Shown: piece by piece, positions 352-19,868 of the stretch | Numbering within the stretch: the first letter of the stretch is position 1 | Layout: every line of letters starts with the position of its first letter | IMG/VR virus record: IMGVR_UViG_3300029567_000036 | Coordinates: 1-35,279 of that record | Strand: one strand, 5' to 3' | DNA from: a virus | DNA length: 35,279 bases | Translations under genes and position numbers: made by a program | The notes under the pieces: generated by a model | The model's input: only the letters and a program-made list of their open reading frames with translations | Told to the model about the DNA's origin: nothing | Databases searched by the model: none

Positions 352-380
352 GAAAAGCAGAATAAAACCGATATATTATT

Positions 381-409
381 TTGACATACCGCAATTCTGC
401 GATATGAAT
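381..409 (+). promoter_or_regulatory. Sigma70-like promoter candidate upstream of the bPH gene
   Basis: TTGACA at 381..386, followed 16-17 nt later by TATGAAT at 403..409, lying in the AT-rich gap after the repressor stop. Confidence 0.4.
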
Positions 410-438
410 ATATTTATTTTCAGAGGAGAAAACAGAAA

Positions 439-957: not shown

Positions 958-992
958 ATAGCCTACCGGGCGCCGGCACTTGCTGCAAACGA

Positions 993-1661: not shown

Positions 1662-1764
1662 ATCACAACAAAATAAAAAAAGCCCTACCCTGCGCCAACA
1701 GGATAGAGCCGATAAGCAGGATATGCAGTACATAACCCACCCAACATTGGATATTGTACCACAT

Positions 1765-1795
1765 CCCTGCCGATAAATCAAGCAGGGCATTTTTG
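1765..1795 (+). terminator. Rho-independent terminator candidate after the MNT-HEPN gene
   Basis: Stem ccctgc (1765..1770) pairs with gcaggg (1782..1787), followed by catttttg. Confidence 0.45.
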
Positions 1796-1831
1796 CGCCC
1801 TTTTTTAAGTACAATCTATGGGAGTGGTACA

Positions 1832-3265: not shown

Positions 3266-3356
3266 TGGATTTTTAGCCGCATTTTCCGCCACGAATTGAA
3301 AAATAAGTGCGATTTTTGGCTTAACGCCGTCATTGATTGTCCATATTTTTACTCTG

Positions 3357-3396
3357 TATCTAAATGCAATACAGGCCTCTTTATTGCATTTAGATA
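3357..3396. promoter_or_regulatory. Perfect 15-bp inverted repeat with a 10-bp spacer; candidate attP core
   Basis: tatctaaatgcaata (3357..3371), spacer caggcctctt, then tattgcatttagata (3382..3396). It lies in the noncoding gap 3' of the integrase. No flanking U-tract, so it does not look like a classic terminator. Confidence 0.4.
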
Positions 3397-3410
3397 TAAT
3401 TAGTATAGAT

Positions 3411-3446
3411 AAAGGCCGAACAGTCTTGTAAACTGCCCGGCCTTTT
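3411..3446. terminator. Hairpin between the convergent integrase and 54-aa ORF (terminator-like; better U-tract on the plus strand)
   Basis: aaaggccg (3411..3418) pairs with cggccttt (3438..3445), followed by tctc. Confidence 0.45.
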
Positions 3447-3447
3447 C

Positions 3448-3612
3448 TCACATCAGCATTGTCGATATTGGAATTATGCGGATAATGTCACCATTTTGGG
3501 CTTTAATGCCAACAGAAAGTTGTTTGTAACGCAGTCCATCATCCACTAAAACAGCTTCGATGATCACATAGTCCGCAGTTTCAACCAAATCTTTGGTATC
3601 TTCCACAATCAT
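3448..3612 (-). CDS. Hypothetical 54-aa protein (below the ORF-track cutoff); moron
   Basis: Hand translation gives MIVEDTKDLVETADYVIIEAVLVDDGLRYKQLSVGIKAQNGDIIRIIPISTMLM. A perfect RBS AGGAGG lies 8 nt upstream of ATG 3612. The ORF has its own promoter and is flanked by hairpins. Confidence 0.6.
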   Translation of the reverse strand: MIVEDTKDLVETADYVIIEAVLVDDGLRYKQLSVGIKAQNGDIIRIIPISTMLM

Positions 3613-3635
3613 TTTTCATTCCTCCTTTGTTTTTC

Positions 3636-3665
3636 GTTATACTACAACGAGACAATGATTGTCAA
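3636..3665 (-). promoter_or_regulatory. Near-consensus sigma70 promoter for the 54-aa ORF
   Basis: On the minus strand, TTGACA (plus 3660..3665), an 18-nt spacer, then TATAAC (plus 3636..3641). The -35 overlaps the palindrome gacaat-g-attgtc (3651..3663). Confidence 0.5.
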
Positions 3666-3696
3666 TACCTTTCACTAATATTAAGTAAAAAAAGCA

Positions 3697-3732
3697 TATA
3701 TGAAAAAGCCCATCGGATAACCGGTGGGCTTT
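3697..3732 (-). terminator. Rho-independent terminator after the endolysin gene
   Basis: On the minus strand, aaagcccaccgg, loop ttat, ccgatgggcttt, followed by ttcatatatgcttttttt. Confidence 0.7.
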
Positions 3733-3737
3733 CTGTT

Positions 3738-4655
3738 TCACTTAATAAATTTATGATTGTCTGCGCATTCCCAGATACACAGCCAGCCGGAGGGGCAGCG
3801 TGCCCACAGGTTGCCGGTGGACAGCAAACGAATATCCGTCAGGGTAACGGCGGTACCTTTCTTCAGATATGCGTCTGCTTTAGGATTAGACGCGGTAGCG
3901 TGGGCCTTGCCGTTCTCCGTCAATTTTCCCACGGTTTTTCGCCCACTGGCAGCGCCTGCGCCCTTGTAGATTCCCCGCACAGCTGTCAAATGATATGTGC
4001 CGGGTTTTACGGTGGGTGCCGTGGGCGCAGACTTGCGGTAATGTATATCCTGTGTGGAATACGCCAGGCGCACATCGCGCTTTGGGGTAAACAACCACAG
4101 GGAAAGCACATCGCCTTTCAAGTCAGCCGGGCGAACATACACCTCTCTGCCGTTTTTCACCCGCGTGTATTTGCGGCGTGCGGCAGTCAAAGTGAACTTG
4201 CCGTCATACCAATACGGGTCCAAAATAATTAAATTGCCGTTTTTGTCGATGCCTGCGGCCAGCACATAGTGCCCGCTGTTGGAAAAGAGCATTTTGCCTC
4301 CGCCGCTTACATTGATAATCGCCTTATAGCCCTGTTTCAGATGTGCCACCAGCCGGTCCATATCTGTGGTGATGGCGTAGTCCAGACCGTATTTTTCTTT
4401 CATATACCGGGCCACCACGGCCATATCCGTGCCTTCCGCCGCCCGGGCACCCATACCCAAGCAGCGATGGGTCCACTGCCGGGTATTGAACACTCGAGTG
4501 GTGGAATTGCGCAGCGCCATTAAGGAAGCACACACCCCACAACCGCTGGTATAAACGCAGCCGGAGGTGCCGTACCGATAAGGGTGGGCCTTACTGGGGT
4601 ACGGTATGCCCTTGCAGGCAGTGGTCGTCTGCCGGCAATAATAAAGTGCAGACAT
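3738..4655 (-). CDS. Endolysin: papain-like (C39-like) cysteine peptidase with a C-terminal SH3b-like wall-binding domain
   Basis: SGCGVCASLMA (candidate catalytic Cys) and GHYVLAAG...ILDPY (His/Asp). The C-terminus GTYHLTAVRGIY...GNLWARCPSGWLCIW is SH3b-like. The gene sits directly after the holin with a TGATG overlap. Confidence 0.65.
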   Translation of the reverse strand: MSALYYCRQTTTACKGIPYPSKAHPYRYGTSGCVYTSGCGVCASLMALRNSTTRVFNTRQWTHRCLGMGARAAEGTDMAVVARYMKEKYGLDYAITTDMDRLVAHLKQGYKAIINVSGGGKMLFSNSGHYVLAAGIDKNGNLIILDPYWYDGKFTLTAARRKYTRVKNGREVYVRPADLKGDVLSLWLFTPKRDVRLAYSTQDIHYRKSAPTAPTVKPGTYHLTAVRGIYKGAGAASGRKTVGKLTENGKAHATASNPKADAYLKKGTAVTLTDIRLLSTGNLWARCPSGWLCIWECADNHKFIK

Positions 4656-4942
4656 CAGTCACCCTCCTGTTCCAGGGTCTCCGCCACGCTCTCGTCCTCT
4701 GTGGCGCCCTCTTGTTGCAACACCCGCAGCACCTCATCTGCCTGGCGGGCGCAGCAGGTAAAGCTGTTATTCTTCCACCAGGCAGCCATGGAAGCCGCTA
4801 CTGCCACCACCGTTGACACGGCGGTGTAGACTTCATCGTCAGAAAAGGGCAAGGGGTTCTTGCCAAAGGCATTGAGCAATACATTCAGCAGAGATACCGC
4901 CAACACGGCGGTTCTTGCGATGGTTCCTGCGGTTACTTTCAT
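4655..4942 (-). CDS. Holin
   Basis: 95 aa with two TM segments, the motif AWWKNNSFT common in Firmicutes phage holins, and an acidic C-terminal tail. RBS AGGAGG is present and the gene precedes the endolysin. Confidence 0.75.
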   Translation of the reverse strand: MKVTAGTIARTAVLAVSLLNVLLNAFGKNPLPFSDDEVYTAVSTVVAVAASMAAWWKNNSFTCCARQADEVLRVLQQEGATEDESVAETLEQEGD

Positions 4943-4945
4943 TTT

Positions 4946-5296
4946 TTAGTCCTCCTTCTGCTCCTCCGGGAGCGCAATAATCTCATTATAAAATCTGGTC
5001 ATCATACCATTGCCGCCCAGGGCATGATATGCGTCATACACCTTGACCATGGCTTCCTTGGCGTACAGGGGGCAGTAGCCCCGCTCGGTATGCTTGTCGT
5101 GCTGCCGTATGATCTCGGCACGCAAAATGGATTGCAGGCCATTTTCAATGGCAATATACCGGGCTGTGGTGACTTCGTCAATTGCTTTTTTGCTTTTCCT
5201 CCTTGCGATCAGGGAAGCGATCACAGCGGACACAGCGCTGCCTACCACCGTGGACACGGCAGCAGTTAGGGCGGCCGTAACGAATGCACTATACAT
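4946..5296 (-). CDS. Hypothetical N-terminally membrane-anchored protein, possibly lysis-associated
   Basis: Preferred start [19 protein letters not shown]... (ATG 5296) gives an ATGTATAG overlap with the upstream stop. One N-terminal TM segment. Confidence 0.5.
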   Translation of the reverse strand: MYSAFVTAALTAAVSTVVGSAVSAVIASLIARRKSKKAIDEVTTARYIAIENGLQSILRAEIIRQHDKHTERGYCPLYAKEAMVKVYDAYHALGGNGMMTRFYNEIIALPEEQKED

Positions 5297-5471
5297 CGGT
5301 CTCACCCCCTTGCAGGGCGTTAATCTCCGCACGGTACGCAGCCCGCTGCCGGCGGATCGGCGCATATTCATCTTCGGACAGCGCACCGTCCGTGTACTTC
5401 AGACAGAGGTAATCCGTCTCCGCCAGCTCGGACTTCAAAAACGCAATGCGGCTTTCTGTCTCCACATTCAT
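5289..5471 (-). CDS. Hypothetical 60-aa protein downstream of the tail fibre
   Basis: ORF in the late-gene orientation whose start overlaps the fibre stop (ATGA-type coupling). Confidence 0.5.
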
Positions 5472-7204
5472 TTTGCCACCCCCAATATTTCAACTTGCGT
5501 GCCTGCGCCAATTGTTCGTCCATTGGTTGGGAAACCTAACGACTTAATCGCACCGTGAGCCTCCACATCCTTGAATATGTTGAAATTAACCTTGTTGCTA
5601 AGCCATATACAGCCTTTTTCCATGACATCAGCTGGGTTGAAGCCACTTGACTTATCTGATTTGTTTTGCATTACACGCACCATGTCAGCAGTCAATTCAA
5701 CCTCTGCAACAACGAAGCTTCCCTTATCTTTTGCAACATCGAAACGAAACGCATTGGGTATGTAAGTCTCAGATGTGTACGAATTCAAATATACAGTTTG
5801 GTCTCCGGCACTACTATTGGTAGTAGTTCCAACGCTAACCATGCGCAACTTAATTTTTCTGCACGGCTTAGACAAAATCCAGTTTTGCTTGTCCGTTGTA
5901 TCGGCGTCAAATGTCTTGGAAAACACAGGCTCCCAGGTCTCAGCAGAACCGGTTTTATCCGCAGTCAGCAGGGTGACCGTCCCGCTGCCGTCTGTCGCTC
6001 TGCGTAAGACGGCCAGGCCAAAATCAGATTGTGTGACTGTGGCACACTCCACGCCATCTTCTTCAAAGAAAGACACCAGCGCCCCACTGCGCAGGACTAA
6101 GGCATGATCGCCGCTTTTGGCATCGTCAGCGTGCAATGTAATGGTGCCATGTGTGTCATAATCCACATTCAGCACATAGGGGCAGAACTCAGAGATGTTC
6201 CACCATTCGTGTAAGGTGACCGCATCGCCTGACGCTTGTGCCAGAGTGCCCACCCAGCTGGTAAGTTTGGCTTGCAACTCATCACTTAACAGGTTCTCTG
6301 TGACCGTTTTTAGAGCCAGCCGCATGCCGGTTATTGTACGCGGCTTAATATGCTTGCCCTCCACAGACAGGGACTCGATCTTATCGCCGGTAACGGCACC
6401 GTCCGCCAGCTTGTTCGTAGTCACAGAGCTATCCGGGATCTCCACCTTGGCGGCAATGTCGGTTTTGTCCGTGTCCGTCAGCACATAGTCCTTGCCATCA
6501 GCGCCTGCAGGACCAGGATCACCTTTTGGTCCTTGTTCGCCCTGGGGGCCTTGCTCACCTTGTGGGCCTTGCGGGCCCTCTGCGCCCGGCTCCCCTTGGG
6601 AACCCTGTGGGCCCACTGCACCATCTTTTCCCGGTTCGCCCTGCGGTCCTCGCTCTCCATCTTTACCAGGAGCGCCCTGGGGACCCGTGTCACCCTTTGG
6701 GCCTTTAATGTTCACCGGTTCCGGGTTGTCCTTCCCGCCGTCATTGGTCCAGCTGATCTCGCCCGCTGCGGACACGCTGGGCGTATAAGTGGTGCCATTC
6801 ACACCCTTACCAATATCCTTGAGCAGTGCCTGCACCTTGGCGTAATAAGACTCCAACTCCGTTGGATCCGGTGCGTCCGTCTCCACAGCTGCCGGGTCAT
6901 AAGAACCAGGGCGCACATAAAACACGCACGGCTCCGGGCTTATACGCTGCACCAACTGCTCGCCATCCACGGCATAGCCGTAAACGCCCAGGCGGCACAT
7001 TCCCTCTTGCAGCGGCGGGGCGAAGCATTGTCCATCCACCACAGTGGCAAACTGGCCGTTCATGCACACCCGCACGACCAGATCGGCGTATGCCGGGTCC
7101 AGCTCTACCACACAGCGAATCTGATTGACATTCTCAGCTGTCACCGGGTCTTTGTTTTGTAAGATCACCGCCTGCTGGGTGACCTTAATATTTAATGTCT
7201 GCAT
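5468..7204 (-). CDS. Tail fibre / baseplate-associated protein with a collagen-like region
   Basis: RBS AGGAGG. 24 uninterrupted G-X-Y triplets (aa 168..239). The C-terminal part is visibly more AT-rich. Confidence 0.75.
6488..6703 (-). repeat. Collagen-like G-X-Y coding repeat (24 triplets)
   Basis: [72 protein letters not shown]. Confidence 0.9.
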
Positions 7205-7294
7205 AAAATCCTCCTTTTTGACATAAAAAAACAGCGTGTCTTAGCCGCCGTTTGCAGTTGACTGCAATTTGTATTTTACATGAGGCTCACCTCC

Positions 7295-7326
7295 AATAAA
7301 AAGGAGCAGGAATAGACACCTGCTCC
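7295..7326 (-). terminator. Rho-independent terminator ending the antirepressor operon
   Basis: On the minus strand, ggagcagg, loop tgtctatt, cctgctcc, followed by tttttatt. Confidence 0.7.
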
Positions 7327-7332
7327 AACTGA

Positions 7333-7566
7333 CTATTTTATTTTGCGTTCACGCACGGCTCGTGCGCCACTCAAAAAGCCCATTATGTAAACGCTCAAAA
7401 GCGATCGGCTGCATCTCCACTGCACATCTTCTGAACAATCGGAACGATATGCATCACGGTAACAAAGTCTCGCCCTTTCCAAAATGTCCACCGTTGCTAT
7501 ATCCGACAGGCGTATAGCCTCATCGATGTTGCAACGACAACTAAAATTCTCATGTGATTCCATCAT
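7333..7566 (-). CDS. Hypothetical 77-aa Cys-rich protein, coupled to the antirepressor
   Basis: RBS AGGAGG overlaps the ant stop codon (tgcataTAGGAGGccATGATG). Confidence 0.55.
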   Translation of the reverse strand: MMESHENFSCRCNIDEAIRLSDIATVDILERARLCYRDAYRSDCSEDVQWRCSRSLLSVYIMGFLSGARAVRERKIK

Positions 7567-7572
7567 GGCCTC

Positions 7573-8262
7573 CTATATGCATAACAGACGGAAGGTTTCT
7601 CTCCCCTTGGGTGTTACCAATGTTTGAGTGCCTGCCCATTTTGTTTTATCATTATAGGATTCTTTGATTTCAAACAATCCTGCATTCTTGTCCTCATACG
7701 GCATTAAGCGCCCGCGTTTATCACGGTATAAATATTTTTTGTCTAACAGGAATGCAATAAAGGTCTTAGGACCGATTCCCAGTTGCTTTGCGGTTTCCCG
7801 AAAATTCGTAAGCAAATTACGACTTACCAATTCATCAAAATATTCTGCCTTTGGTTGCATTGTTTGTACCGCCACCGTAAGTTTTGAATTCTCCTGCATA
7901 GCCGTTCTTAAATTCTGCTCCGCCATACGCAGCGCCCGGGACATTACCATTTCAGGCGTATTCCAAGCATTTTCCAGCTCGATAAAATACAAGCGTGCCT
8001 GTTTACCTCTATCATTGCGCTGGAGCATACAGAGCTCCTTAGCCATTTCAATGGTCAACTGCGCATCATTTCCCGGCCTACCGCGCTCGCCGGTATTTTC
8101 GCACAAAAATGTGCGAAAATCATTGCCCTCCACAAATCCATATTCGCACATTCTTGGAAACCAGTTGCGAAATGAGCTTTTCACTTCCAAGAATTTATGC
8201 AATTCTCTTGCCGACACCGTTGGCCTATCGCCATCGTAATTCACTTTGATTAGCTCGTTCAT
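7573..8262 (-). CDS. Phage antirepressor (AntA/AntB-like N-terminus plus KilAC/ANT-like C-terminus)
   Basis: MNELIKVNYDGDRPTVSARELHKFLEVKSSFRNWFPRMCEYGFVEGNDF... is typical of antirepressor N-domains. The C-terminal part contains AEYFDELV...LTNFRETAKQLGIGPKTFIAFL. ATG 8262 has RBS AAGGAG; the track's start at 8382 is an extension. Confidence 0.75.
   Translation of the reverse strand: MNELIKVNYDGDRPTVSARELHKFLEVKSSFRNWFPRMCEYGFVEGNDFRTFLCENTGERGRPGNDAQLTIEMAKELCMLQRNDRGKQARLYFIELENAWNTPEMVMSRALRMAEQNLRTAMQENSKLTVAVQTMQPKAEYFDELVSRNLLTNFRETAKQLGIGPKTFIAFLLDKKYLYRDKRGRLMPYEDKNAGLFEIKESYNDKTKWAGTQTLVTPKGRETFRLLCI
8095..8120. promoter_or_regulatory. 26-bp palindrome P1 (11-bp arms, aaaa centre) inside the ant coding sequence
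   Basis: attttcgcaca-aaaa-tgtgcgaaaat, a perfect dyad, encoding NDFRTFLCEN on the minus strand. Confidence 0.8.
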
Positions 8263-8426
8263 AAACAAAAACTCCTTACAAAATAATCTTGCAAGAGGCC
8301 CTCGTATTTGGTATAATAAATCTATCAGTGGAGAACCTCTGCTGCTGTTTAGGGATTTGCTTGTGCTTGGTCGTGTAAGCAAATCTCTTTTTTCTTTTCA
8401 AAAAACGCCACATAATGCCGTTTCCT

Positions 8427-8452
8427 ATTTTCGCCCAAAAATGGGCGAAAAT
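8427..8452. promoter_or_regulatory. 26-bp palindrome P2, sibling of P1 with a compensatory change
   Basis: attttcgccca-aaaa-tgggcgaaaat. It differs from P1 only at the two symmetric positions 9 and 18 (A/T to C/G). It lies in the gap between the small HTH gene and ant. Confidence 0.8.
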
Positions 8453-8458
8453 ACCGAT

Positions 8459-8638
8459 TCACATTTTTTGATCATCCAGTGCTGTAATTGCGTCCATAAC
8501 TTTTTGCGTTTCTTCTGCCGAAAAATCATAACGCAGTTTTTTAGAAAAAGTGCAATCGCTCATGCCCAGATAATCCGCGACTTGCCACAGTCGCAAACCA
8601 GAACGAATAATTGTACTTTTGATTTCTGACCCCTTCAT
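8459..8638 (-). CDS. Small HTH DNA-binding protein (59 aa), first gene of the ant operon (Arc/Cro-like position)
   Basis: MKGSEIKSTIIRSGLRLWQVADYLGMSDCTFSKKLR contains a helix-turn-helix. RBS AGGAGG lies 7 nt before ATG 8638. The track's start at 8671 would lie upstream of the predicted transcription start. Confidence 0.65.
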   Translation of the reverse strand: MKGSEIKSTIIRSGLRLWQVADYLGMSDCTFSKKLRYDFSAEETQKVMDAITALDDQKM

Positions 8639-8669
8639 TTTCGCACCTCCTTTCGCATTTGATGTCATC

Positions 8670-8698
8670 ATAATATCATTTTCGCAGTATTATGTCAA
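8670..8698 (-). promoter_or_regulatory. Near-consensus promoter of the ant operon
   Basis: On the minus strand, TTGACA (plus 8693..8698), a 17-nt spacer, then TATTAT (plus 8670..8675). The spacer contains the half-site attttcgcag (8678..8687). Confidence 0.6.
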
Positions 8699-8733
8699 CA
8701 ACATCAGCAAAATATTTTTTTGTCGTTTTATTG

Positions 8734-8762
8734 TTGACATATTCCCTCTTATGTGCTATTTT
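8734..8762 (+). promoter_or_regulatory. Divergent promoter for the XRE regulator
   Basis: TTGACA at 8734..8739, a 17-nt spacer ending in TGc, then TATTTT at 8757..8762. Its -35 block ttgttgacat is the exact reverse complement of atgtcaacaa (8692..8701) in the opposing promoter. Confidence 0.55.
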
Positions 8763-8801
8763 TAATTTAGACACAAAAACAATTATATTGAGGTGTTGAA
8801 A

Positions 8802-9344
8802 ATGACGAATATTAACTACAAGGAAGTTGGCAATAGATTAAAACGACTGATTGCAGAAAAAAATATGAACCAAATTGAGTTTGCAAAGCTCTGTAATGTG
8901 AGCGAAGCTACTTTGCGATTGCATATTCGCGGTGAAATAAAGAAAGGGATCAACTGTGATTGCTTATATGCATATAGCCGGGAACTCAATGTTTCAATGG
9001 AGTATCTACTTACAGGCGTTGAAACAAAGAAGCCCATTGCAATAAAGTATGTAGACATTATCAATGCAATCAACCTCTTGATCGATGCATTTGGGACCGA
9101 AATTATCAGCCCATGCAGTGAGGAGTTTGCGGACTGTTTATACATTGCAGATGAGGCTATCCAAACCTACTTGGAAAAAATCAGGCTTAACGGACATATT
9201 CGCGAAGATCTTGAAAGAATCAACGAGGGTGAAACATACAACAAAATGCGTAGAGAGTGGGCAGGATTATCTTGCAACAGATATAGTCACACTACAAAGA
9301 AGATCATCCCCTACGATGACGATGACGACAACTTGCCCTTCTAA
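8802..9344 (+). CDS. XRE-family HTH regulator (180 aa) with an SSB-tip-like acidic C-terminus (Mnt-like position)
   Basis: The N-terminus is LKRLIAEKNMNQIEFAKLCNVSEATLRLHIRGE (HTH_XRE). RBS GAGGTG lies 6 nt before ATG 8802. The C-terminus is ...IIPYDDDDDNLPF. Confidence 0.75.
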   Translation: MTNINYKEVGNRLKRLIAEKNMNQIEFAKLCNVSEATLRLHIRGEIKKGINCDCLYAYSRELNVSMEYLLTGVETKKPIAIKYVDIINAINLLIDAFGTEIISPCSEEFADCLYIADEAIQTYLEKIRLNGHIREDLERINEGETYNKMRREWAGLSCNRYSHTTKKIIPYDDDDDNLPF

Positions 9345-9352
9345 GTCAAAAA

Positions 9353-9391
9353 GGCTTTCGTCTACAAACAGACGAGGGCCTTTTTGTTTTT
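9353..9391 (+). terminator. Rho-independent terminator after the XRE gene
   Basis: ggctttcgtct, loop acaaac, agacgagggcc (two G-U pairs), followed by tttttgttttt. Confidence 0.7.
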
Positions 9392-9392
9392 C

Positions 9393-9421
9393 TTGCAATC
9401 TGCGGGGAAGTGTGGTATGGT
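9393..9421 (+). promoter_or_regulatory. Promoter candidate for the Thr-rich membrane protein
   Basis: TTGCAA at 9393..9398, a 17-nt spacer with TGg, then TATGGT at 9416..9421. Confidence 0.4.
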
Positions 9422-9444
9422 GGGGAGTGAAAGGAGAGATGGAG

Positions 9445-9966
9445 ATGAAGTCTAAGGCCAAAGTGTGGATCCTTGTTGTGACCGTTGTAATGGCGGTGGG
9501 GGTCGGTATCGGTGTGTGGGTGCACTATGATCGAGTGCATGATCAGGAGACAGCCAGTCTGGTAGATCACGCTGTATCCAGTGCACTGGCTGGTGTTACT
9601 ACACAGCCCACAGAGACCACTACAGAACCGGCAGCCACAGAGGCGACCGCAACCACAACAACTACAAAGCCCACAACCACTAAGAAGAAAAAGAAGAAGC
9701 ATACTACCACGCAACCGCAAGTAGTGTATCGCACCGAAAGGAATGGCACAGTAGCCCCAGCCGCAATAAGAGAAACAACCGAATCAACGGTGCCGAAGCG
9801 TCCTGCTGACGCGCACTTTGATCCCATACCTTCTGACGATGGATATTACTGGGACACAGCTTCTTCTCGAGACGATCCGTTAGAAGAAATATATGTCGAT
9901 GAAAGCGGCAGGCATTTCTATTTCAAAAAGGGCGATAAATCCACTCCAAGAATATATATTGACTAA
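9445..9966 (+). CDS. Single-pass membrane-anchored protein with a Thr/Pro-rich linker and a KKKKKK run
   Basis: MKSKAKVWILVVTVVMAVGVGIGVWV is a signal-anchor. The linker is TTQPTETTTEPAATEATATTTTTKPTTTKKKKKKHTTT. RBS AAGGAG lies 8 nt upstream. The track's start at 9085 overlaps the XRE gene and is rejected. Confidence 0.6.
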   Translation: MKSKAKVWILVVTVVMAVGVGIGVWVHYDRVHDQETASLVDHAVSSALAGVTTQPTETTTEPAATEATATTTTTKPTTTKKKKKKHTTTQPQVVYRTERNGTVAPAAIRETTESTVPKRPADAHFDPIPSDDGYYWDTASSRDDPLEEIYVDESGRHFYFKKGDKSTPRIYID

Positions 9967-9973
9967 TAACTCT

Positions 9974-10006
9974 AAAGCGGCTGTTCCAGTGCGGAGCAGC
10001 CGCTTT
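9974..10006. terminator. Bidirectional terminator hairpin between convergent genes
   Basis: aaagcggctg (9974..9983) pairs with cagccgcttt (9997..10006). Confidence 0.6.
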
Positions 10007-10011
10007 GCTGT

Positions 10012-12558
10012 TTATTGCAATTTTGCTTTCAGCGCGTCCACTGCGGCTTGCAAAGCGTCCAGTTGCTTCTTTTGATCTTGGATCAACTTAAGCATTGCCG
10101 GTATCATGATACGATCTTGCCAGCTTTCAGGTCTCCCTTCACTGTCATAGATCACTGCGTTGGGGTAATGCTTGTCCAGATCCTCTGCAATAACGCCGAT
10201 CTGCGTCCCGCTGACCAATTCGTTGTCCTTGTATTCTGGCTTGTAATTGTACTGGCACACCTGTACATCGTAAAGACCGTTTGGATCCAGCACAGCGTCT
10301 TCTACCGGTTTGATATTCTCTTTGTATCGTTTTGATGAGTTTGCGGTTGTAATAACGCCGCTTGTGTTTACAACCAGTGGAATGGTTCCGCTTGAAGATT
10401 TAAAACTCAGTCTAATATCGTCTTGTACCGTCAGTTTGCCTCTGATTGTCGTGGCGTTATCAATCCATATACTCTTCCCGACAAGGTATAAAACATTATC
10501 GCCACCATTCGCACTAAGCACAAACCCGCCTTTTGATTCAATCGTATCACGGTACGCAGTGCTTCCGCTAAGCGTCCAACTCACTTTAGACAGTACAAAT
10601 CTGGTTTCAACCGAATCTTTCGATCCCGCTTGTATACACAAGTTGCCATTCTGCTGCATTCTTAAGCAAATATCTCCGCCTTCTAAATATGTTTTGGCTC
10701 CGTGCTCATACTGACCGTATCCAATTACAAGGCTGTTACCACCAGATGCAGCATTAATGATTTCATATCCGGCAAGATCATATATTTTTTTGTAGAATTG
10801 TACATCGGCATCAAATTTGGTTTTCCCTTCCACCGATAGGGCCCCGCTCACATCTACCGAACCATTGCATACCATATCGCCGCCCATCGTTACATACCAT
10901 GTACCAGTATATGAACCGTTGCTGTTCTTTTTTTGTGCAGAAAACACCCAAGAGCCTTTGGTAGTTGGCTTTTGAATGTATGCACGATAACTACCCAAAT
11001 CCGCATACAGTTCTCGGTCGGTGATGTTCCACCCGGCGATCGTGCCTTTATCCGCAAGGATCTCAATACCGGAGAGTCTACCGGCTGAAATGTCCGTAGC
11101 ATTCAGGTAATACTGGTTGGTTTTTTTGTTGTAGTACACCGCAAAGTCCTTAAATGGGCCTTGCAGTCCGGTGGTAGAAACAGCCATGCCGTTCTTATTC
11201 AGCAGCAGGCAGCGTCCTTTGGTCTTGCCCTCCGCTGCCGGGTACTCTCCGATATAAAGCGCGTCTGACACACCATCGCCGTCCCGGTCGATCAAAGCAG
11301 CGTAACCACCAACTGCGTTCGTGATAGAATCCGTGGCGTCCTGAATGCGCTGCGCCAACGGCGCTGTGACCTGCTGCATAGCCTTAGAGATCATGCGGGA
11401 AAGAATGCTTCCGGCAGAGCTGCCCTCCTGTTCTGAACGGGCATGGGCGGCCACATCCATAGTGACGGAGCCATCATAATCATACTCCACACCCATCAAG
11501 GGGATATGGTGATCGCCGGTATCGTCCCGGTAAGTGATCACATCAAAACTATCCAGCGCCGGATTGGCCGTGAGCAATGTCATACTTCCCGGTCGGTACT
11601 GTATGCCCAGGTCAAATACAGTCTCACCCTGGTCGCCATCATCTATGTAGATCATATCGGATACAGCGTTAAATACTTTTTCCGCTTGGGCCTGGGTGGT
11701 GATCAGCGGATTGTCGAAATACAGCACCTCGCTGTTGACCGACAGACTATCTGGTGCAAGAATATTCTTATTCCCATTGTTGCAACTGATCCCCAGGTAG
11801 GTTTTGTCCGTCTCTGCCAGAGAGACCTCTGTGACTGTGTCGTCTGTCACCGTGTATTCTGCCGTACCATCATATACCTGGGCGAAAGTATCTACTCGCA
11901 ACTTGCCCTCTCGGTCAAAGACGGCAGCACAGCCGCAGAACCCAGCCACATAACCGATGGCATCATTCACATTATAGGCAGTGACCTGCTGCTTGCCGTC
12001 CTCGTCTGTTTCCGTACCGCAGAGCAAAGAAACATCTACCGTGCCAAAGCCGGAGACCTTGCTCTCCACGCCGGGAGCCAACTCAAAGTTACCCTGGCGT
12101 GCCAGGTCTTTTAAGATTGCCAAAGGGGTCTGCTGACCGCTGATGGCGGCAGAATACGGCATAGAAAGATCATACATGTGGTCGTACATTTCCAAAGTGG
12201 TACATTCGCCGGACCGAGTGACCTTTTCCGGATAAAACACGCCCATTGGCACCCACTCCACTGCACCGTTGACCATACAGCCAAAGTACACCACGGTTTT
12301 CTGCCCGCGAAGCACGGCACCGGCGGGCACAGCCCACAAAACGCAGTTACACCCACAGGAGTAGGATTTTGCCAGCGCGTAATCATCATGGCTGATACTG
12401 CGGTCAATATTCAGCTCCATAATGTTATTTTGCTCATTTGGGCTTGTAGGATCCGTCTCATCGTTGTAGCCAAAAATGAAATTGCCACATTTAACCTTCA
12501 CATAGATCCGTTCACCGTTTTTGATGGCTTGGTTAAACGCTGTGCTTGTCTTGTACAT
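10012..12558 (-). CDS. Tal-like tail tip/fibre protein with a C-terminal Peptidase_S74 intramolecular chaperone domain
   Basis: The gene follows the tape measure and a small tail protein. The C-terminal 109 aa, NSSKRYKENIKP...GVIAEDL...IPAMLKLIQDQKKQLDALQ, match the self-cleaving chaperone domain of endosialidase/tail-spike proteins. ATG 12558 has RBS AAGGAG. Confidence 0.75.
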   Translation of the reverse strand: MYKTSTAFNQAIKNGERIYVKVKCGNFIFGYNDETDPTSPNEQNNIMELNIDRSISHDDYALAKSYSCGCNCVLWAVPAGAVLRGQKTVVYFGCMVNGAVEWVPMGVFYPEKVTRSGECTTLEMYDHMYDLSMPYSAAISGQQTPLAILKDLARQGNFELAPGVESKVSGFGTVDVSLLCGTETDEDGKQQVTAYNVNDAIGYVAGFCGCAAVFDREGKLRVDTFAQVYDGTAEYTVTDDTVTEVSLAETDKTYLGISCNNGNKNILAPDSLSVNSEVLYFDNPLITTQAQAEKVFNAVSDMIYIDDGDQGETVFDLGIQYRPGSMTLLTANPALDSFDVITYRDDTGDHHIPLMGVEYDYDGSVTMDVAAHARSEQEGSSAGSILSRMISKAMQQVTAPLAQRIQDATDSITNAVGGYAALIDRDGDGVSDALYIGEYPAAEGKTKGRCLLLNKNGMAVSTTGLQGPFKDFAVYYNKKTNQYYLNATDISAGRLSGIEILADKGTIAGWNITDRELYADLGSYRAYIQKPTTKGSWVFSAQKKNSNGSYTGTWYVTMGGDMVCNGSVDVSGALSVEGKTKFDADVQFYKKIYDLAGYEIINAASGGNSLVIGYGQYEHGAKTYLEGGDICLRMQQNGNLCIQAGSKDSVETRFVLSKVSWTLSGSTAYRDTIESKGGFVLSANGGDNVLYLVGKSIWIDNATTIRGKLTVQDDIRLSFKSSSGTIPLVVNTSGVITTANSSKRYKENIKPVEDAVLDPNGLYDVQVCQYNYKPEYKDNELVSGTQIGVIAEDLDKHYPNAVIYDSEGRPESWQDRIMIPAMLKLIQDQKKQLDALQAAVDALKAKLQ

Positions 12559-12569
12559 AAAATACTCCT

Positions 12570-12938
12570 TTAGCGCTCGATGGCGTCTACTTTGTAGTTG
12601 ATGAAATACCGGCAATTCCTGGCACCGGAATAGGCTGTCCAACTGGGCGTACCAAAGTAGCAGTTGAACGAAAACACCGTATTCCCGGAAGTATCCTCCA
12701 GTTTAATAGAATGCCAGGGCTTACCCGCATTGTTGATCACGCCGTTTAGCTTGTCCAATTCCGCCCGGGTCAAGGGCGGAAAGGACAACTGCCTTGTTTT
12801 TTTGACCTGAACGATACTGCCGTTCATATAAGCTGACTTGGAGCGGCCCGTGTTAGAGGACCACACCTTTTCATCTGAACAGGATATGGCATTGAATGAT
12901 GGGTTTGGCATTTTTGTGCCGTCAATATATAGTGGCAT
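12570..12938 (-). CDS. Small tail protein in the distal-tail position (function assigned by position only)
   Basis: Lies between the tape measure and the Tal-like gene. RBS AGGAGGG. Confidence 0.4.
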   Translation of the reverse strand: MPLYIDGTKMPNPSFNAISCSDEKVWSSNTGRSKSAYMNGSIVQVKKTRQLSFPPLTRAELDKLNGVINNAGKPWHSIKLEDTSGNTVFSFNCYFGTPSWTAYSGARNCRYFINYKVDAIER

Positions 12939-12949
12939 ACCGTCCCTCC

Positions 12950-15739
12950 TTACGCTGTGGCCGTAACTGGGTCACGGCCTTTCTTTTCTGTTTGGTTCAC
13001 ATCGTCCAGCACCACCGTGCTTAAATGCTTACCGCCCACATATACCGGGATCGTTACATTGACCGCCTGCCCGCTGCTACCCAGCATTTGCACCATCATT
13101 GCAGCTACCTTGCTGATCCACTGGGTGTTTCGCTCCAAAGGCACAACAGCCTCGGCGCCTTTACCTTCCAGCAGACCGACCTGGCCTTTTTTCAGCACGC
13201 CGCCCTTTTCCAGCTCTGGGATAGTGGGTATAGAAAACAACTGGTACTGGCCGTTGGTCACGCTCACGCCCAGGGCGCTAAGCACATTAGACAGTGTGCT
13301 GCCAACGCTAATCAGCAGCTTGTCATTGATCTTGCCAACCATATTGTTGACCAGTTTGATCACACCGTTTAAGGGGCCTTTGAACGCATTGGTAAAGGTG
13401 GCTTTCAAATTCTTCAGGCCGTTCTTTAAGCCGGTCACGATCTTACCGCCAAGGCCGGTGACTTTTGATACAACGCCATTTTTCCCGGTAAAGAAATTAA
13501 CAACGCCGTCCTTAAATCCTTTGAATTTTTGGCTGACCTTTTTCCACAGATCGCCGATACCGTCAAACAGACCTTGGGAAATAAAGCCGCCCTGCTTTTT
13601 CATAACCTTAGACGGCGATTTGATCTCAAACGCTTTTTGGAAACCATTGATAAACGGTTGGAAAATGTGTTCCTTAACCCACTTCCATGCATCTCCAATG
13701 CCGTCAATGATGCCGTCCCAAATGCCCTGGGCCACATTGCCGCCGGCTTCTTTGATCTTGTCGCCAAAATAGGACTGTATACCGGACACAGCGTCAGAGA
13801 TAAGCTGTCCCAGGAATGCACACAGGCCGCCTAAAGCTGCACCAAGCGATTCAAACAGAGCGCTTGCCATTCCACCAAAATCAATACCGCCTATGAAGTT
13901 TTCCAGCGCTGTTGCAAGCCCGCGCCAGTCCAGGTTTTCCAGAAATCCGGAAATGATCTTGAACACACCGCTGATTGCATCGGACAGGGTCTTTGCCACC
14001 TGTCCCCAATCAATGGTGTTGAATATACCGTTCAGGTTTTTAGCAAAGCCTGCGCCAAGAGCTGCAAAATCGAATGTGGTCAGAAAGGTATCCAGCGCAC
14101 CGAATATGGTATTTACACCGTTGCCGACAATCTGTCCGGCGCCCTCCCAGTCGAAGTCACGGATGAAGCCGTTTAGGCTCTTGGCAATACCGCTGACAGC
14201 GCCGTTGACTTTGTCCTGTATGCCTTTCCAGTCCAGAGCGTTGATCTTGCTGATAATCTTATTGCAAGAACCGGCGATCTGTTCGCCGATCCCCTCAAAG
14301 TTGCCGCTTTTCCACAGGTTCTTGATCTTGTCCAGATATTGGGAAAACTTATCGGAAGCCGCAGGTGTGGCGGCGGCAGTGGATCCGGACGAAGCGTCAC
14401 TGTCCTGCTGGTCATCGCTTACCTTTGTGATTTGATCGAAGCCGTACAGCTCGTTTTTTGCTTTTGCCAGCTTTTTGGTTTCTTTCGTTGTTTTGCTTAC
14501 GGCGGTAGCCGTAGCATTCACTTGTGAAGCGATCCCCACAGAGGACAGCAAGCCGCTAATGGCATTAGCCACACTCATGGCATAGGGCATGAGCTTTTCA
14601 AACAGCCCCACAACCACATTGATGGCCGGTGCCAAAGCATTTGCAAAAGCATTTTTCAAGGCTTCTACACGGTTATTCAGAGCCTCGTTCTGACTTAAAT
14701 ATCCGGTGATCACCGAGCGCAGCTCGCCGAAAATGTTTTTACACACTTTCAGCCCCAACGATACCACACCTATACGGCGGATAGACTTGACCACATTCAA
14801 CAGGGACTTGCTGGCCGTACCGGAAGAAGCACGCATATTTTTCAGGTGACTATGCACCTTGCCGAAAGCGGCGCCCGCTGCAGATCCGATATTTCCAAAT
14901 ATGCCCTTTAACCCGGAGAAGCCCTTTTTCAGTTTCCCTGCTGCGGAAACATCACCGGTTTGCTTGAGCTGCTTGCTCATACTCTTAAGCGCAGGAGCAT
15001 TTCTGGATATAGACGATTTCAAGTTGGAAAAGCGGTTGCTTTCCGTTGCTATATCCGCATTGGTTTTGTTGATCTGTCCCGTGGTCTGTGCCATTGCACT
15101 CTTCGCTTTGAGAATCTGCGAAGAGGTTTTGCGGATTTCATTTTTCAGCTTGTCCAGCGTATCCGTTTTTAAATTATTCGGATTCAGGCCAACCTCTTTC
15201 AGCTCGCTGTCAAAGACTTCTAAATCGTTCTTTATACGATTGATAGCCGCCCGCTGCTGTTCAATCTGATTGATCGTCATGCCGCTGGTCGACGCTGTTT
15301 CCATTTTGTGGATCCAGTCTACCATCTCCTGATACTGACTGCTTACACCGGCGATGCCGTCCTTATAGGACTTCAAAAACTCCTGCTGTGCCCGGTAAGT
15401 GGCTGTTACCTCTTTTAAGCGGCTGGACAACTGCTTGTATGTTTCGTCCTGGCTGTGCAGCTGATCTTTCAGCTGTCTGGCTTTTGCCGTATACTCGGAT
15501 ATTTTCGCAGCACTGCTCATAGCGGCCTGCACATTGCGCTCTTGGCTCTTAATAAGCGTATCCACCTGCTTTCCCATCTTCCTTGTATCAGAAGAGGCGG
15601 AAGACATTGCCTTGGCAGTCACCGTCTTAATTTTATCCGTCACGCCGGACAGCTGCTTCAGCTCGGCTTGGAGAGAGGCCATGCTCTTTTTGTACTGGCT
15701 AATATCCGCAGTAAATCGTGTTACCAATTCCTGATCCAC
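12950..15739 (-). CDS. Tail tape measure protein
   Basis: 929 aa with a coiled-coil N-terminal half and Gly-rich/hydrophobic segments. It sits after the G/T chaperone pair. GTG start with RBS AGGAGGTG. Confidence 0.85.
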   Translation of the reverse strand: MDQELVTRFTADISQYKKSMASLQAELKQLSGVTDKIKTVTAKAMSSASSDTRKMGKQVDTLIKSQERNVQAAMSSAAKISEYTAKARQLKDQLHSQDETYKQLSSRLKEVTATYRAQQEFLKSYKDGIAGVSSQYQEMVDWIHKMETASTSGMTINQIEQQRAAINRIKNDLEVFDSELKEVGLNPNNLKTDTLDKLKNEIRKTSSQILKAKSAMAQTTGQINKTNADIATESNRFSNLKSSISRNAPALKSMSKQLKQTGDVSAAGKLKKGFSGLKGIFGNIGSAAGAAFGKVHSHLKNMRASSGTASKSLLNVVKSIRRIGVVSLGLKVCKNIFGELRSVITGYLSQNEALNNRVEALKNAFANALAPAINVVVGLFEKLMPYAMSVANAISGLLSSVGIASQVNATATAVSKTTKETKKLAKAKNELYGFDQITKVSDDQQDSDASSGSTAAATPAASDKFSQYLDKIKNLWKSGNFEGIGEQIAGSCNKIISKINALDWKGIQDKVNGAVSGIAKSLNGFIRDFDWEGAGQIVGNGVNTIFGALDTFLTTFDFAALGAGFAKNLNGIFNTIDWGQVAKTLSDAISGVFKIISGFLENLDWRGLATALENFIGGIDFGGMASALFESLGAALGGLCAFLGQLISDAVSGIQSYFGDKIKEAGGNVAQGIWDGIIDGIGDAWKWVKEHIFQPFINGFQKAFEIKSPSKVMKKQGGFISQGLFDGIGDLWKKVSQKFKGFKDGVVNFFTGKNGVVSKVTGLGGKIVTGLKNGLKNLKATFTNAFKGPLNGVIKLVNNMVGKINDKLLISVGSTLSNVLSALGVSVTNGQYQLFSIPTIPELEKGGVLKKGQVGLLEGKGAEAVVPLERNTQWISKVAAMMVQMLGSSGQAVNVTIPVYVGGKHLSTVVLDDVNQTEKKGRDPVTATA

Positions 15740-15770
15740 AAAATCACCTCCTTTTCTTGTTTTTCAATCG

Positions 15771-16506: not shown

Positions 16507-16559
16507 TGCTTACCTCCTAAAAATGAGGGAGACGGTCTCCCGCCTCCCGAATAATCGAT

Positions 16560-17003: not shown

Positions 17004-17015
17004 ATAAAATCCTCC

Positions 17016-18567: not shown

Positions 18568-18585
18568 AACATATCACCCCATAAG

Positions 18586-18721: not shown

Positions 18722-18737
18722 TTGTACCTCCCCGGGC

Positions 18738-19853: not shown

Positions 19854-19868
19854 TTCTTATTCCTCCTA

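Follow-up and report, generated by a model that had tools for sequence, protein, structure and literature searches.

The window analysed here, a 35,279-nt stretch of viral DNA, raises the question of why a phage with its own lysis-lysogeny switch should hold a second set of repressor- and antirepressor-like genes inside its tail module. Its primary switch, of the S24-type CI/Cro kind, lies at 34489..351, with the CI gene split between the window ends because the window has a 99-bp terminal overlap. CI contains an S24 domain together with AAG, GDSM and Lys, in agreement with the RecA-sensitive motifs (Ala-Gly, Ser/Lys) that an earlier note had read from the sequence. That note took the second gene set for a secondary immunity island at 7295-9966, mirroring immI of phage P22. 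We find a cassette that is real, mobile and common, an 'ant moron' that is analogous, not homologous, to P22 immI.

Extent of the cassette in the tail module

As claimed, AT-rich DNA (GC 0.35-0.43 across 7500-9000 versus ~0.5 elsewhere) lies between the end of the Tal-like/S74 gene at 10012 and the start of the collagen fibre gene at 7204. Presence or absence of the cassette was mapped by tblastn over 39 loci. The cassette is absent from 27 related viral contigs, in which the gap between the membrane gene and the fibre gene is 142-144 bp, supporting an insertion inside the tail module. In empty-site relatives (L010, L006, L027 and L017), homology with the window breaks off after 7294 and restarts at 9388, the two flanks being separated by 2 nt. 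The cassette therefore comprises 7295..9387 (2093 bp) rather than 7295..9966. Comparison with island-free relatives thus upholds the insertion but moves its right end to 9387 and leaves the membrane gene as a resident. The cassette contains XRE180, HTH59, Ant (AntA+KilAC) and the 77-aa p77, with its own terminators at both ends:

7295..9387, no strand: inserted cassette ('ant moron'), from junctions against cassette-free relatives and the 39-locus tblastn map
7303..7326, minus: predicted intrinsic terminator of the ant operon, GGAGCAGG...CCTGCTCC then TTTTTATTGG
7333..7566, minus: p77, 77 aa, three-helix, last gene of the ant operon, from the ORF list
7573..8262, minus: Ant, 229 aa, Pfam AntA/AntB 3.6e-24 (N-terminal) and ANT/KilAC 2e-24 (C-terminal), phrog_63 8e-52
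8095..8120, no strand: palindrome O2, ATTTTCGCACAAAAATGTGCGAAAAT, perfect over 26 bp, within the ant coding sequence
8289..8317, plus: predicted antisense promoter Pas, TTGCAA-17-TATAAT with TG, in the HTH59-ant spacer and directed away from ant
8324..8398, plus: predicted antisense RNA, ~75 nt, 5' hairpin, terminator hairpin (8351-8388) and U tract
8427..8452, no strand: palindrome O1, ATTTTCGCCCAAAAATGGGCGAAAAT, just past the HTH59 stop codon
8459..8638, minus: HTH59, 59 aa, first gene of the ant operon, Cro-type helix-turn-helix by sequence relatives
8698..8670, minus: predicted promoter Pant, TTGACA-17-TATTAT, 11/12, TG
8734..8762, plus: predicted promoter Pxre, TTGACA-17-TATTTT, 10/12, TG
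8802..9344, plus: XRE180, 180 aa, Pfam HTH_26 1.2e-5
9347..9386, plus: predicted XRE180 terminator, from the terminator scan; marks the cassette right end by junction mapping
9445..9966, plus: resident membrane-anchored protein, outside the insertion, present in cassette-free relatives
9973..10007, plus: hairpin at the membrane-gene/Tal convergence, from the terminator scan; conserved in relatives

The membrane gene, thought to complete the block, does appear to have a promoter of its own, predicted by eye (TTGCAA 9393-9398 / TATGGT 9416-9421), but is retained in cassette-free relatives. Its product has an N-terminal TM helix, a Thr-rich linker and, across aligned alleles, a variable C-terminal domain of ~70 aa; homologues of like architecture occur in L043 and L044 (introduced below). 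The hairpin beyond it had been described as a bidirectional terminator (9974..10006), but it passes the terminator scan on the plus strand only, and bidirectionality is not supported because the minus-strand (late-gene) stem then runs into GAGTTATTAGTC. The late operon was already interrupted before the cassette arrived, since the opposite-strand membrane gene and this hairpin are found in all relatives. The cassette's own contribution to the late strand is a good predicted minus-strand terminator at 7326..7303, 98 bp upstream of the fibre ATG.

Regulators, effector and conserved layout

Inside these limits the earlier description largely stands. HTH59, the AntA/KilAC Ant, the 77-aa ORF and the terminator at 7326..7303 follow in order on the minus strand, XRE180 has its own terminator, and near-consensus promoter matches lie back to back at 8670..8698 and 8734..8762. 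In a 4.5-kb scan for sigma-70 matches Pant ranked first and Pxre joint second; together their -35 regions make up an extended inverted repeat, and half-sites ATTTTCGCA lie around Pant at 8678 and 8637. Promoter-like sites numbered 14, against 7.2 +/- 3.4 in shuffles, and terminator-like sites 12, against 4.2 +/- 1.8.

HTH59 gave no HTH match in a Pfam search; the claimed HTH protein is Cro-like by its 33% identity to the phage's own Cro-like protein and by distant relatives that hold the cro position in int / cI-like | HTH / xis-like / replication modules of other prophages. XRE180 has an N-terminal Cro/C1-type HTH followed by a C-terminal domain, and neither an S24 peptidase domain nor a recognisable signal-sensing or autocleavage domain was found in it. 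Only 5 homologues were recovered in a search of 5.8 billion proteins. Two large Ruminococcus phages encode close homologues of Ant (59% identity) amid their replication genes, with no annotated repressor within the ~10-kb stretches viewed. The exact Ant protein occurs in 1003 blocks of the assembly collection, within prophages on 0.2-0.6 Mb contigs. For p77, neither Pfam nor PHROG gave a match, and its AF2 model (pLDDT 89) found none in a fold search; the family is small (23 representatives at E<=1e-3 among 1.8 billion), and one relative lies 3' of a Bro-N gene in an ordinary early operon.

A like layout beside a Tal-like S74 gene occurs in an independent, diverged lineage (L043, L044 and L045), and this conservation is the strongest argument against chance. 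There, the 62-aa counterparts of HTH59 are 69-72% identical, the 212-aa counterparts of XRE180 are 62-64% identical over the N-terminal ~95-100 residues, and the L043 Ant is 74% identical. Pant reaches 12/12 consensus in all three, the Pxre hexamers TTGACA/TATTTT are unchanged, and the stem sequence of the ant-operon terminator is shared. The regulatory part is constant while the effector varies (AntA-KilAC, Bro-N-KilAC or Bro-N). p77 accompanies the KilAC-bearing Ant in L043 and L045 and is missing from L044, where Bro-N without KilAC sits on the shared regulatory part. The L043 cassette is at another site and inverted, so the cassette should not depend on late-gene read-through to work.

Between contigs the cassette retains 97.6-99.9% identity, compared with 28-92% for Tal, 61-98% for the membrane protein and 80-99.8% for the fibre. 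Its genes are intact and, judged by their codon changes, evolving under purifying selection: synonymous and nonsynonymous changes number 12 and 3-4 in Ant between haplotypes and 3 and 0 in HTH59, and synonymous changes also predominate in XRE180.

The palindromes O1 and O2 were considered as operators common to both lineages. O2 has zero expected copies in shuffles and an extra half-site at 8140-8150. O1 is invariant across 10 contigs, folds as RNA into a hairpin (-18.4 kcal/mol, z -5.1) and sits in a 26-nt stretch missing from the L043 lineage. The recognition-helix regions of XRE180 and HTH59 are conserved between the lineages while O1 and O2 are confined to that of the window, which rules them out as the shared operators.

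The spacer between HTH59 and ant contains a further predicted unit. Pas was not listed in the earlier note; by alignment, the equivalent position in L043, L044 and L045 is a 12/12 match (TTGACA-17-TATAAT), and the downstream terminator is likewise present in that lineage. The predicted RNA folds at -25.5 kcal/mol (z -4.3), and its counterparts in L043 and L044 adopt the identical two-hairpin shape (z -4.9 and -4.3); no Rfam family matched. Its predicted start lies ~60 nt before the ant start codon, and its complementarity to the ant leader stops short of the ant ribosome-binding site.

Parallels with known immunity systems

The order in P22 is 16(+), sieA (-, own promoter), mnt(-), Pmnt/Pant, arc(+), sar(-), ant(+), terminator, gene 9(+) (annotated record; PMC2629481). 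Read along its minus strand, the window gives Tal, membrane protein (opposite strand, own promoter), XRE180 (opposite strand), Pxre/Pant, HTH59, predicted antisense RNA, Ant, terminator and fibre. The proposed mirror of immI therefore holds one for one in gene order and orientation, including the unit at the sar position, but the proteins are unrelated: P22 Ant, Arc, Mnt and SieA showed no sequence similarity to the window proteins. Both modules sit inside a late operon directly upstream of the receptor-binding protein gene, adjoin a separately promoted membrane protein gene on the opposite strand, and set a maintenance repressor gene divergent from a small-repressor and ant operon. Each has a small antisense unit (predicted in the window) between small repressor gene and ant, and a terminator 3' of ant; in each, presence varies among otherwise syntenic relatives. 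The window differs in its CI/Cro-type HTH regulators (ribbon-helix-helix in P22), in promoters that do not overlap as in P22 but stand back to back, their -35 boxes 35 bp apart, and in the additional gene p77. Its host is a Gram-positive gut anaerobe and its virion that of a siphovirus. The antisense promoter lies inside ant in P22 and upstream of the ant ribosome-binding site in the window, so the predicted RNA, unlike sar, would be unable to mask that site.

In the immI region of P1/P7 (c4 antisense RNA, icd, ant), which confers secondary immunity, an antisense RNA holds down an AntA/KilAC-type antirepressor, a combination also predicted in the window. The P1 RNA repressor is processed from the same transcript, with translational coupling through icd. 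To our knowledge, P1 immI has neither the divergent protein repressor pair nor the location among tail genes seen in the window.

Primary switches of Firmicutes phages offer another parallel. In C. difficile phiCDKH01 an XRE repressor has been shown to bind the intergenic DNA and to silence the promoter serving a small regulator and a KilAC 'antirepressor' (PMC11172241). The window has a similar arrangement, in which an XRE repressor gene diverges from a small HTH gene and the KilAC 'antirepressor' gene behind it, and relatives of HTH59 and p77 are found in such early regions. In contrast to these switches, the window module is a second, truncated copy with a terminator after p77, lies apart from the integrase and replication genes, embedded in the tail module, and coexists with a separate S24-type CI/Cro switch.

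Proposed role and competing explanations

We propose, at a probability of roughly 0.5, that an AntA-KilAC regulator acts on lysis-lysogeny circuitry under a miniature CI/Cro-type switch and an antisense RNA. In the lysogen, XRE180 made from Pxre, which would read in the direction of the adjacent prophage-expressed gene, would keep Pant shut, as Mnt does in P22. Pant would fire once XRE180 is absent, as in a fresh infection, or inactivated, yielding HTH59 and then Ant and p77. The Cro-type HTH59 would feed back on the promoter pair and limit the burst, as Arc does in P22. The ~75-nt Pas RNA would oppose the Pant transcript between HTH59 and ant, by convergent transcription and/or an RNA duplex, keeping ant expression below that of HTH59 in a sar-like role that leaves the ribosome-binding site uncovered. 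Ant, possibly with p77, would then act in trans on the circuitry. Our committed guess is that it neutralises a CI-type repressor, either that of a co-resident prophage or, as we purely infer, the phage's own.

A possible but doubtful alternative is that Ant works as an AriS-like effector, its KilAC domain damping host RecA/SOS and its AntA domain tuning phage transcription, so that the module, instead of inactivating a repressor, stabilises or times induction, both of the S24-type CI prophage and of its neighbours. In Listeria phage phi10403S, AriS inhibits SOS by way of its KilAC domain and also tunes phage transcription; neither CI binding nor action on a CI-like repressor was reported in that study, which also shows that A118 gp42 blocks mitomycin-induced lysis as AriS does (PMC9043618). 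Ant has exactly their Pfam architecture (AntA/AntB + ANT/KilAC), and its AntA domain is 37% identical to that of A118 gp42 (E 2e-14), although the BLAST alignment covers the AntA halves only. The same study names P1/P7 Ant1/Ant2 as carriers of AntA/KilAC-type domains and reports swaps of AntA, Bro-N or pRha before a constant KilAC (PMC9043618); the AntA/Bro-N alternation in the window, L045 and L044 matches this pattern. Since the primary repressor is of RecA-dependent type, an SOS damper would have a target. AriS, however, belongs to an early lytic module and has no dedicated repressor pair, whereas Ant has one and is insulated in the tail region; and SOS damping is not the cassette's general job, because the L044 effector lacks KilAC.

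It is improbable that XRE180 acts as a sensor, released when a phage replication or recombination protein docks on its SSB-like C-terminal tip, in the manner of SaPI Stl. The partner would come from an incoming phage or from the phage's own replication, and Ant would then serve prophage escape or a counter-attack on the intruder. XRE180, lacking an S24 domain, needs some other release mechanism, and its end, YDDDDDNLPF, is invariant across 10 contigs and resembles that of the phage's own SSB, IDDDDDLPF. The C-terminal hexapeptide of SSB is known to act as a docking motif (PMC5872125), and release of Stl repressors by phage recombinases or dUTPases provides a precedent (PMC11846896, PMC6695447). 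Against this, the 212-aa homologues in the second lineage lack the tail, an acidic tail with an aromatic last residue can arise by chance, and the single-sequence AF2 model of XRE180 is poor (pLDDT 51).

Most improbable is an inert passenger, an early-region cI / cro-ant fragment of another phage now functionless in a permissive gap: the gene set (cI-like | cro-like, ant, p77) is typical of ordinary early regions and the Tal-fibre gap is a mosaic joint already tolerating a foreign gene, but all four ORFs are intact in >20 independent contigs, with the excess of synonymous changes noted above, promoters at or near consensus in two lineages 26-38% apart in homologous protein regions, terminators at both ends and a cassette more conserved than its flanks.

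We retain the reading of Ant as a switch-controlled regulator of lysis-lysogeny circuitry. The prophage type that hosts the cassette is common in the human gut. Most relatives retrieved via the Tal gene are without the cassette, which is therefore dispensable for the basic life cycle. Jointly with the proposed mechanism, and at the same even odds, 7295..9387 would be a self-contained, horizontally exchanged accessory module.

Genome context and insertion of the cassette

The window comprises the full genome of a temperate siphovirus, opened within its repressor gene. Its first 99 positions (1-99) recur at its end (35181-35279), within the CI gene, so the window represents a circularly assembled genome with CI split across its ends. 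Read across the junction, the primary CI is an S24-type protein of 217 aa in which AAG, GDSM and the Lys are all present, bearing out the earlier note's description of a RecA-sensitive-type repressor. Downstream of CI, the plus strand encodes a bPH-domain protein, a nucleotidyltransferase (MNT/HEPN-like) and a serine integrase. The minus strand carries the endolysin, an SPP1-type holin, a collagen-repeat fibre (5468-7204), the cassette region, a Tal-like gene (10012-12558) whose product has an S74 chaperone domain, then genes for the tape measure, head and terminase, and an early region with a Cro-like gene (34489-34707) at its end. The two genes between CI and the integrase (window 439-1661) are on the prophage-expressed strand; the MNT-HEPN-like gene encodes a fused nucleotidyltransferase/substrate-binding protein that matches the PADLOC candidate system PDC-S09, and the pair is possibly a defence or toxin-antitoxin pair expressed in the lysogen.

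No close relative was found in the annotated phage collection. Gut metagenome assemblies show the phage inserted into a Mn-catalase gene, on contigs of 0.06-0.68 Mb (loci L108-L127), with a 143-164-aa piece of the catalase beyond the endolysin end and a 35-aa piece beyond the serine integrase; attP is expected in the stretch that separates integrase and endolysin (window 3266-3737). Some of the host contigs (L114, L115) also encode dockerin proteins. CI lies about 25 kb from the cassette region in these integrated prophages. Many relatives (L119-L123, L126 and L127 at about 14.2-15.7 kb; L010 at 15742-17150) carry an extra insertion after the endolysin gene, missing from the window, which encodes a SecB-like chaperone, an HTH_3 protein and a Gp49 (HigB-like) toxin and looks like a toxin-antitoxin-chaperone module.

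All genes, promoters and terminators that the earlier note had named in the tail module were recovered:

7500-9000: low-GC block, GC 0.35-0.43 against about 0.5 elsewhere
7326..7303, minus strand: ant-operon terminator
7333-7566, minus strand: p77, a 77-aa protein
7573-8262, minus strand: Ant (AntA 3.6e-24, KilAC 2e-24, phrog_63 8e-52)
8459-8638, minus strand: HTH59, a 59-aa Cro-type HTH protein
8698..8670, minus strand: Pant, predicted promoter of the HTH59-Ant-p77 operon, 11/12 with TG
8734..8762, plus strand: Pxre, predicted promoter of XRE180, 10/12 with TG
8802-9344, plus strand: XRE180, a 180-aa XRE regulator
9347..9386, plus strand: XRE180 terminator
9445-9966, plus strand: membrane-anchored protein

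Across the 4.5 kb scanned, Pant is the best and Pxre the joint second-best sigma-70 match.

The Tal protein, used as query, matched 37 viral contigs, onto all of which the island and flanking proteins were mapped. In 27 contigs the membrane gene is followed by the fibre gene 142-144 bp on, without XRE180, HTH59, Ant or p77, and all four cassette genes were found in 2 viral contigs of this set. Further carriers came from a pattern scan and a metagenome scan: a short viral contig and seven from metagenomes. In four relatives free of the cassette, the match to the window runs to 7294 and resumes at 9388, with 2 bases between; the inserted block is thus 7295..9387, 2093 bp, with its own terminator at each end. 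Synteny with island-free relatives, one of the checks proposed by the earlier note, confirms insertion in the tail module and fixes the exact junctions. The note had drawn the island as 7295-9966, including the membrane protein; the true right boundary is 9387, and the membrane-protein gene, with its promoter, belongs to the lineage itself, being kept without the cassette.

A moron is an independently expressed block that is seen as inserted when related phages are compared (PMC2629481). The cassette fits this definition by its insertion among relatives, its own promoters, its flanking terminators and its GC content (0.35-0.43 vs about 0.5). Among carriers it is 97.6-99.9% identical, and the flanks vary more (Tal 28-92%, membrane protein 61-98%, fibre 80-99.8%); either the cassette spread by recombination, or receptor-binding genes were swapped around it. 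Nor is it rare, since the exact Ant protein occurs in 1003 blocks of the assembly collection. Synonymous versus nonsynonymous codon changes between the two haplotypes number 12 vs 3-4 in Ant, 3 vs 0 in HTH59 and 8 vs 5-6 in XRE180.

Regulators and exchangeable effectors

As in a CI/Cro-type switch, the two HTH regulators diverge from a shared control region. The LexA-like autocleavage feature of such a switch is missing: Pfam gave no Peptidase_S24 in XRE180, whose domain matches are HTH_26, HTH_19 and HTH_3. A single-sequence AF2 model of XRE180 was too poor for a fold search (pLDDT 51). HTH59 shares 33% identity with the Cro-like protein of the same phage, and its distant relatives (37-48%) occupy the cro position of modules with integrase, cI-like, HTH, xis-like and replication genes. 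The p77 family is small; one relative sits after a Bro-N gene in an ordinary early operon with cI and cro. The AF2 model of p77 is a confident three-helix fold, for which Foldseek against PDB and BFVD matched only p77 itself. A PDB sequence search gave no match for Ant, HTH59, XRE180 or p77, and NCBIfam and PADLOC gave no informative family for the cassette proteins, the PADLOC matches being generic HTH ones for XRE180 (PDC-M69A, HTH_VI) and none for Ant, HTH59 or p77. The cassette is a shortened Firmicutes lysis-lysogeny switch (cI-like gene, then cro-like, ant and p77), closed by terminators and placed among tail genes; the phage retains a separate S24-CI/Cro switch elsewhere.

A large protein search yielded five XRE180 homologues, three of which are 212 aa long and 62-64% identical across the N-terminal ~95-100 residues. 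These three are encoded in cassettes of the same design that adjoin a Tal-like S74 gene in other phages, at three loci of a diverged second lineage (L043, L044 and L045), where the HTH protein is 69-72% identical to HTH59. The effector differs between these loci: L043 encodes an AntA+KilAC protein 74% identical to Ant, L045 a Bro-N+KilAC protein, each with a p77 homologue (48%), and L044 a Bro-N protein with another C-terminus and two other small ORFs in place of a p77 homologue. The neighbour is again a membrane protein of the same architecture; the L043 cassette is on the opposite flank of the membrane gene and inverted relative to the late genes. A genome contig scan matched the second lineage in one uncultured Clostridia MAG, and found none there for the window's lineage. 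Judged from these arrangements, the cassette is an autonomous unit with a constant regulatory part and exchangeable cargo, since the three loci keep the regulators and swap the effectors, and L043 holds the unit inverted elsewhere. One regulator and promoter frame combined with AntA-KilAC, Bro-N-KilAC or Bro-N offers a route to asking what the often annotated, little understood 'antirepressor' domains do.

Antisense unit, palindromes and late transcription

The 196-nt spacer between HTH59 and ant contains a predicted plus-strand promoter, Pas (8289..8317, TTGCAA-17-TATAAT with TG, promoter scan), with a plus-strand terminator downstream (8351..8388, terminator scan). At the aligned position, all three second-lineage loci (3/3) have a perfect TTGACA-17-TATAAT, followed ~70-100 nt later by a plus-strand terminator hairpin that overlaps the HTH stop codon. 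The predicted antisense RNAs of both lineages are 75-100 nt long, with a 5' hairpin and a terminator hairpin (z -4.3 to -4.9); that of the window spans 8324 to ~8398. An Rfam scan of 7000-10200 at E<=1 gave no known RNA family, the sole match above noise being a sub-threshold one of ctRNA_p42d to the XRE terminator hairpin (25 bits vs a gathering score of 50). The RNA is directed away from ant, with its 5' end ~60 nt upstream of the ant start codon, and so cannot mask the ant ribosome-binding site; it could act by convergent transcription or as a leader duplex.

A perfect 26-bp palindrome, ATTTTCGCNCAAAAATGNGCGAAAAT, occurs in two copies, O1 (8427-8452) after the HTH59 stop and O2 (8095-8120) within ant, and half-site copies at <=1 mismatch all fall inside 8095-8647. 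O1 is unchanged in ten contigs and lies in a 26-nt stretch missing from the second lineage. The recognition regions of both regulators, including the recognition helices, are kept between the lineages, so the palindromes were rejected as common operators; they may be lineage-specific operators, roadblocks or RNA hairpins. Three direct repeats of TTTTTGGGACG, at spacings of 48 and 42 bp, lie in the primary CI/Cro control region (34739-34856). Of the three genomic copies of the 10-mer CATTTTTGGG, two are in these repeats and one is in O1 (8434-8443, minus strand). This sharing may reflect cross-talk of the primary repressor with the ant operon, and could also arise by chance, at about 1 in 10.

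The earlier note had the late operon interrupted by a 'bidirectional' terminator at 9974..10006. In the terminator scan the hairpin (9973..10007) qualifies on the plus strand alone and, with no U tract on the late strand, gives no support for 'bidirectional'. The late operon was interrupted before the cassette, because every relative has both the membrane gene on the opposite strand and this hairpin. To this the cassette adds a good terminator on the minus strand, 98 bp before the fibre start. The promoter scan found no sigma-70-like promoter in 7205-7294, and no convincing late-promoter motif was common to 7205-7300 and the other intergenic regions of the minus strand that were compared with it. 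The phage encodes a 137-aa protein (26320-26733) that is weakly sigma-70-region-4-like. Directly downstream of its gene, TGTTATAGTAT occurs twice, 26 bp apart (~26257-26293, minus strand), in an intergenic site before a 175-aa gene and the small terminase gene; TGTTATAGTAT, a candidate late-promoter or regulator site, was not found upstream of the fibre gene. Read-through, antitermination and a non-canonical late promoter are all possible means of expressing the late genes past the cassette; P22 copes by antiterminated read-through (PMC2629481).

In the resident membrane protein the TM helix and a Thr/Lys-rich linker are near-constant, and the C-terminal ~70 residues fall into several allelic types (P0032-P0043). 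Its gene and the Tal gene are convergent, and the Tal end that it faces is the variable C-terminal one. The PADLOC and NCBIfam matches of the protein are due to the low-complexity linker, and by analogy with sieA a part in superinfection exclusion would be compatible with these features. In one prophage with the cassette (L121, 8426-8917) a 163-aa opposite-strand gene is called where the others have the membrane-protein gene, which could be a rearrangement or a calling artefact.

Likeness to P22 immI and the possible action of Ant

Secondary immunity regions have been worked out for the enterobacterial phages P22 and P1, and a narrow literature search found no description of one inside a Gram-positive phage tail module. 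The P22 repressors Arc and Mnt are ribbon-helix-helix proteins, whereas XRE180 and HTH59 are HTH proteins. BLASTP of Ant against P22 Ant was not significant (E = 3.7); BLAST gave no match to P22 Arc and nothing significant to Mnt or SieA. The earlier note's comparison with immI holds for layout, position and insertion, and fails for protein similarity, with no homologous match.

In P22 the order is gene 16, sieA (opposite strand, own promoter), mnt, Pmnt/Pant, arc, sar, ant, a terminator and the tailspike gene (PMC2629481, annotated P22 record). Read on its minus strand, the window has the same order and orientations as the P22 stretch from 16 to the tailspike. In both, a maintenance repressor diverges from an operon of a small repressor then ant, with closely apposed promoters, an arrangement conserved in the second lineage (L043-L045); the promoters stand back to back in the window but overlap in P22. 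Both blocks sit in the late operon, directly upstream of a receptor-binding protein gene and beside a prophage-expressed membrane gene in the sie position. In the spacer between small repressor and ant, the window has an antisense-strand promoter and terminator that are conserved in both lineages and predicted to yield a well-folded RNA; P22 sar covers the ant ribosome-binding site, and the window's RNA would not. P22-like phages likewise vary in the presence or absence of the block (PMC2629481). The resemblance to immI is one of design and position, not descent. It argues that phages have arrived more than once at placing an antirepressor beside receptor-binding genes, controlled by two repressors and an antisense RNA.

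Ant carries PF08346 at residues 16-83 (3.6e-24) and PF03374 at 132-225 (2e-24), both above gathering scores, giving the AntA/AntB plus ANT/KilAC architecture in the order of the Listeria protein AriS. The AriS gene is located in the early lytic module; the Ant gene lies in the tail module. In AriS, KilAC inhibits the SOS response and AntA tunes phage transcription, and the N-terminal domain of KilAC proteins alternates between AntA, Bro-N and pRha (PMC9043618). The AntA half of Ant shows 37% identity to A118 gp42, which the same study also tested (PMC9043618), and the closest annotated homologues of Ant (59%) are found in large Ruminococcus phages, in the midst of replication genes. In phiCDKH01, the promoter of a small regulator and KilAC genes is shut by an XRE repressor (PMC11172241); by analogy, this case supports the regulatory half of our model, not the target of Ant.

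We favour, with a probability of about 0.5, a regulated 'ant moron' that acts on repressor circuitry. The same regulated module with an AriS-like effector is a tentative alternative, which the domain order of Ant would suit and its place in the tail module would not, and we consider it rather unlikely. XRE180 might instead be a sensor repressor of the SaPI-Stl kind. Its C-terminus (9314-9344), YDDDDDNLPF, resembles the SSB docking tip of the phage, IDDDDDLPF (30773-30800, minus strand), and is no recent DNA copy of it, since the codons differ; the tail is invariant in 10 contigs and absent from the 212-aa second-lineage homologues. That this mimic baits an SSB-binding replication or recombination protein is improbable. 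If it did, the cassette would detect phage DNA replication or superinfection and respond by releasing Ant, and control of a transcription repressor through an SSB-tail mimic would give phage switches an input of a new kind. An inert passenger, too, is given little weight. The earlier observation was essentially right, its interpretation being correct on design and insertion, wrong on the right boundary and unproven on the target.

The interest of the cassette lies in its convergence with P22, its conserved antisense unit, its exchangeable effector and its natural plus and minus variants. An XRE/HTH/Ant cluster in a tail module need not mean a second prophage or a misassembly. Otherwise nearly identical prophages with and without the cassette are natural controls, in which induction and the interference between prophages in the gut could be compared. 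The logic and genomic position of P22 immI recur, built from unrelated parts, in a very common human-gut prophage, a case of convergence.
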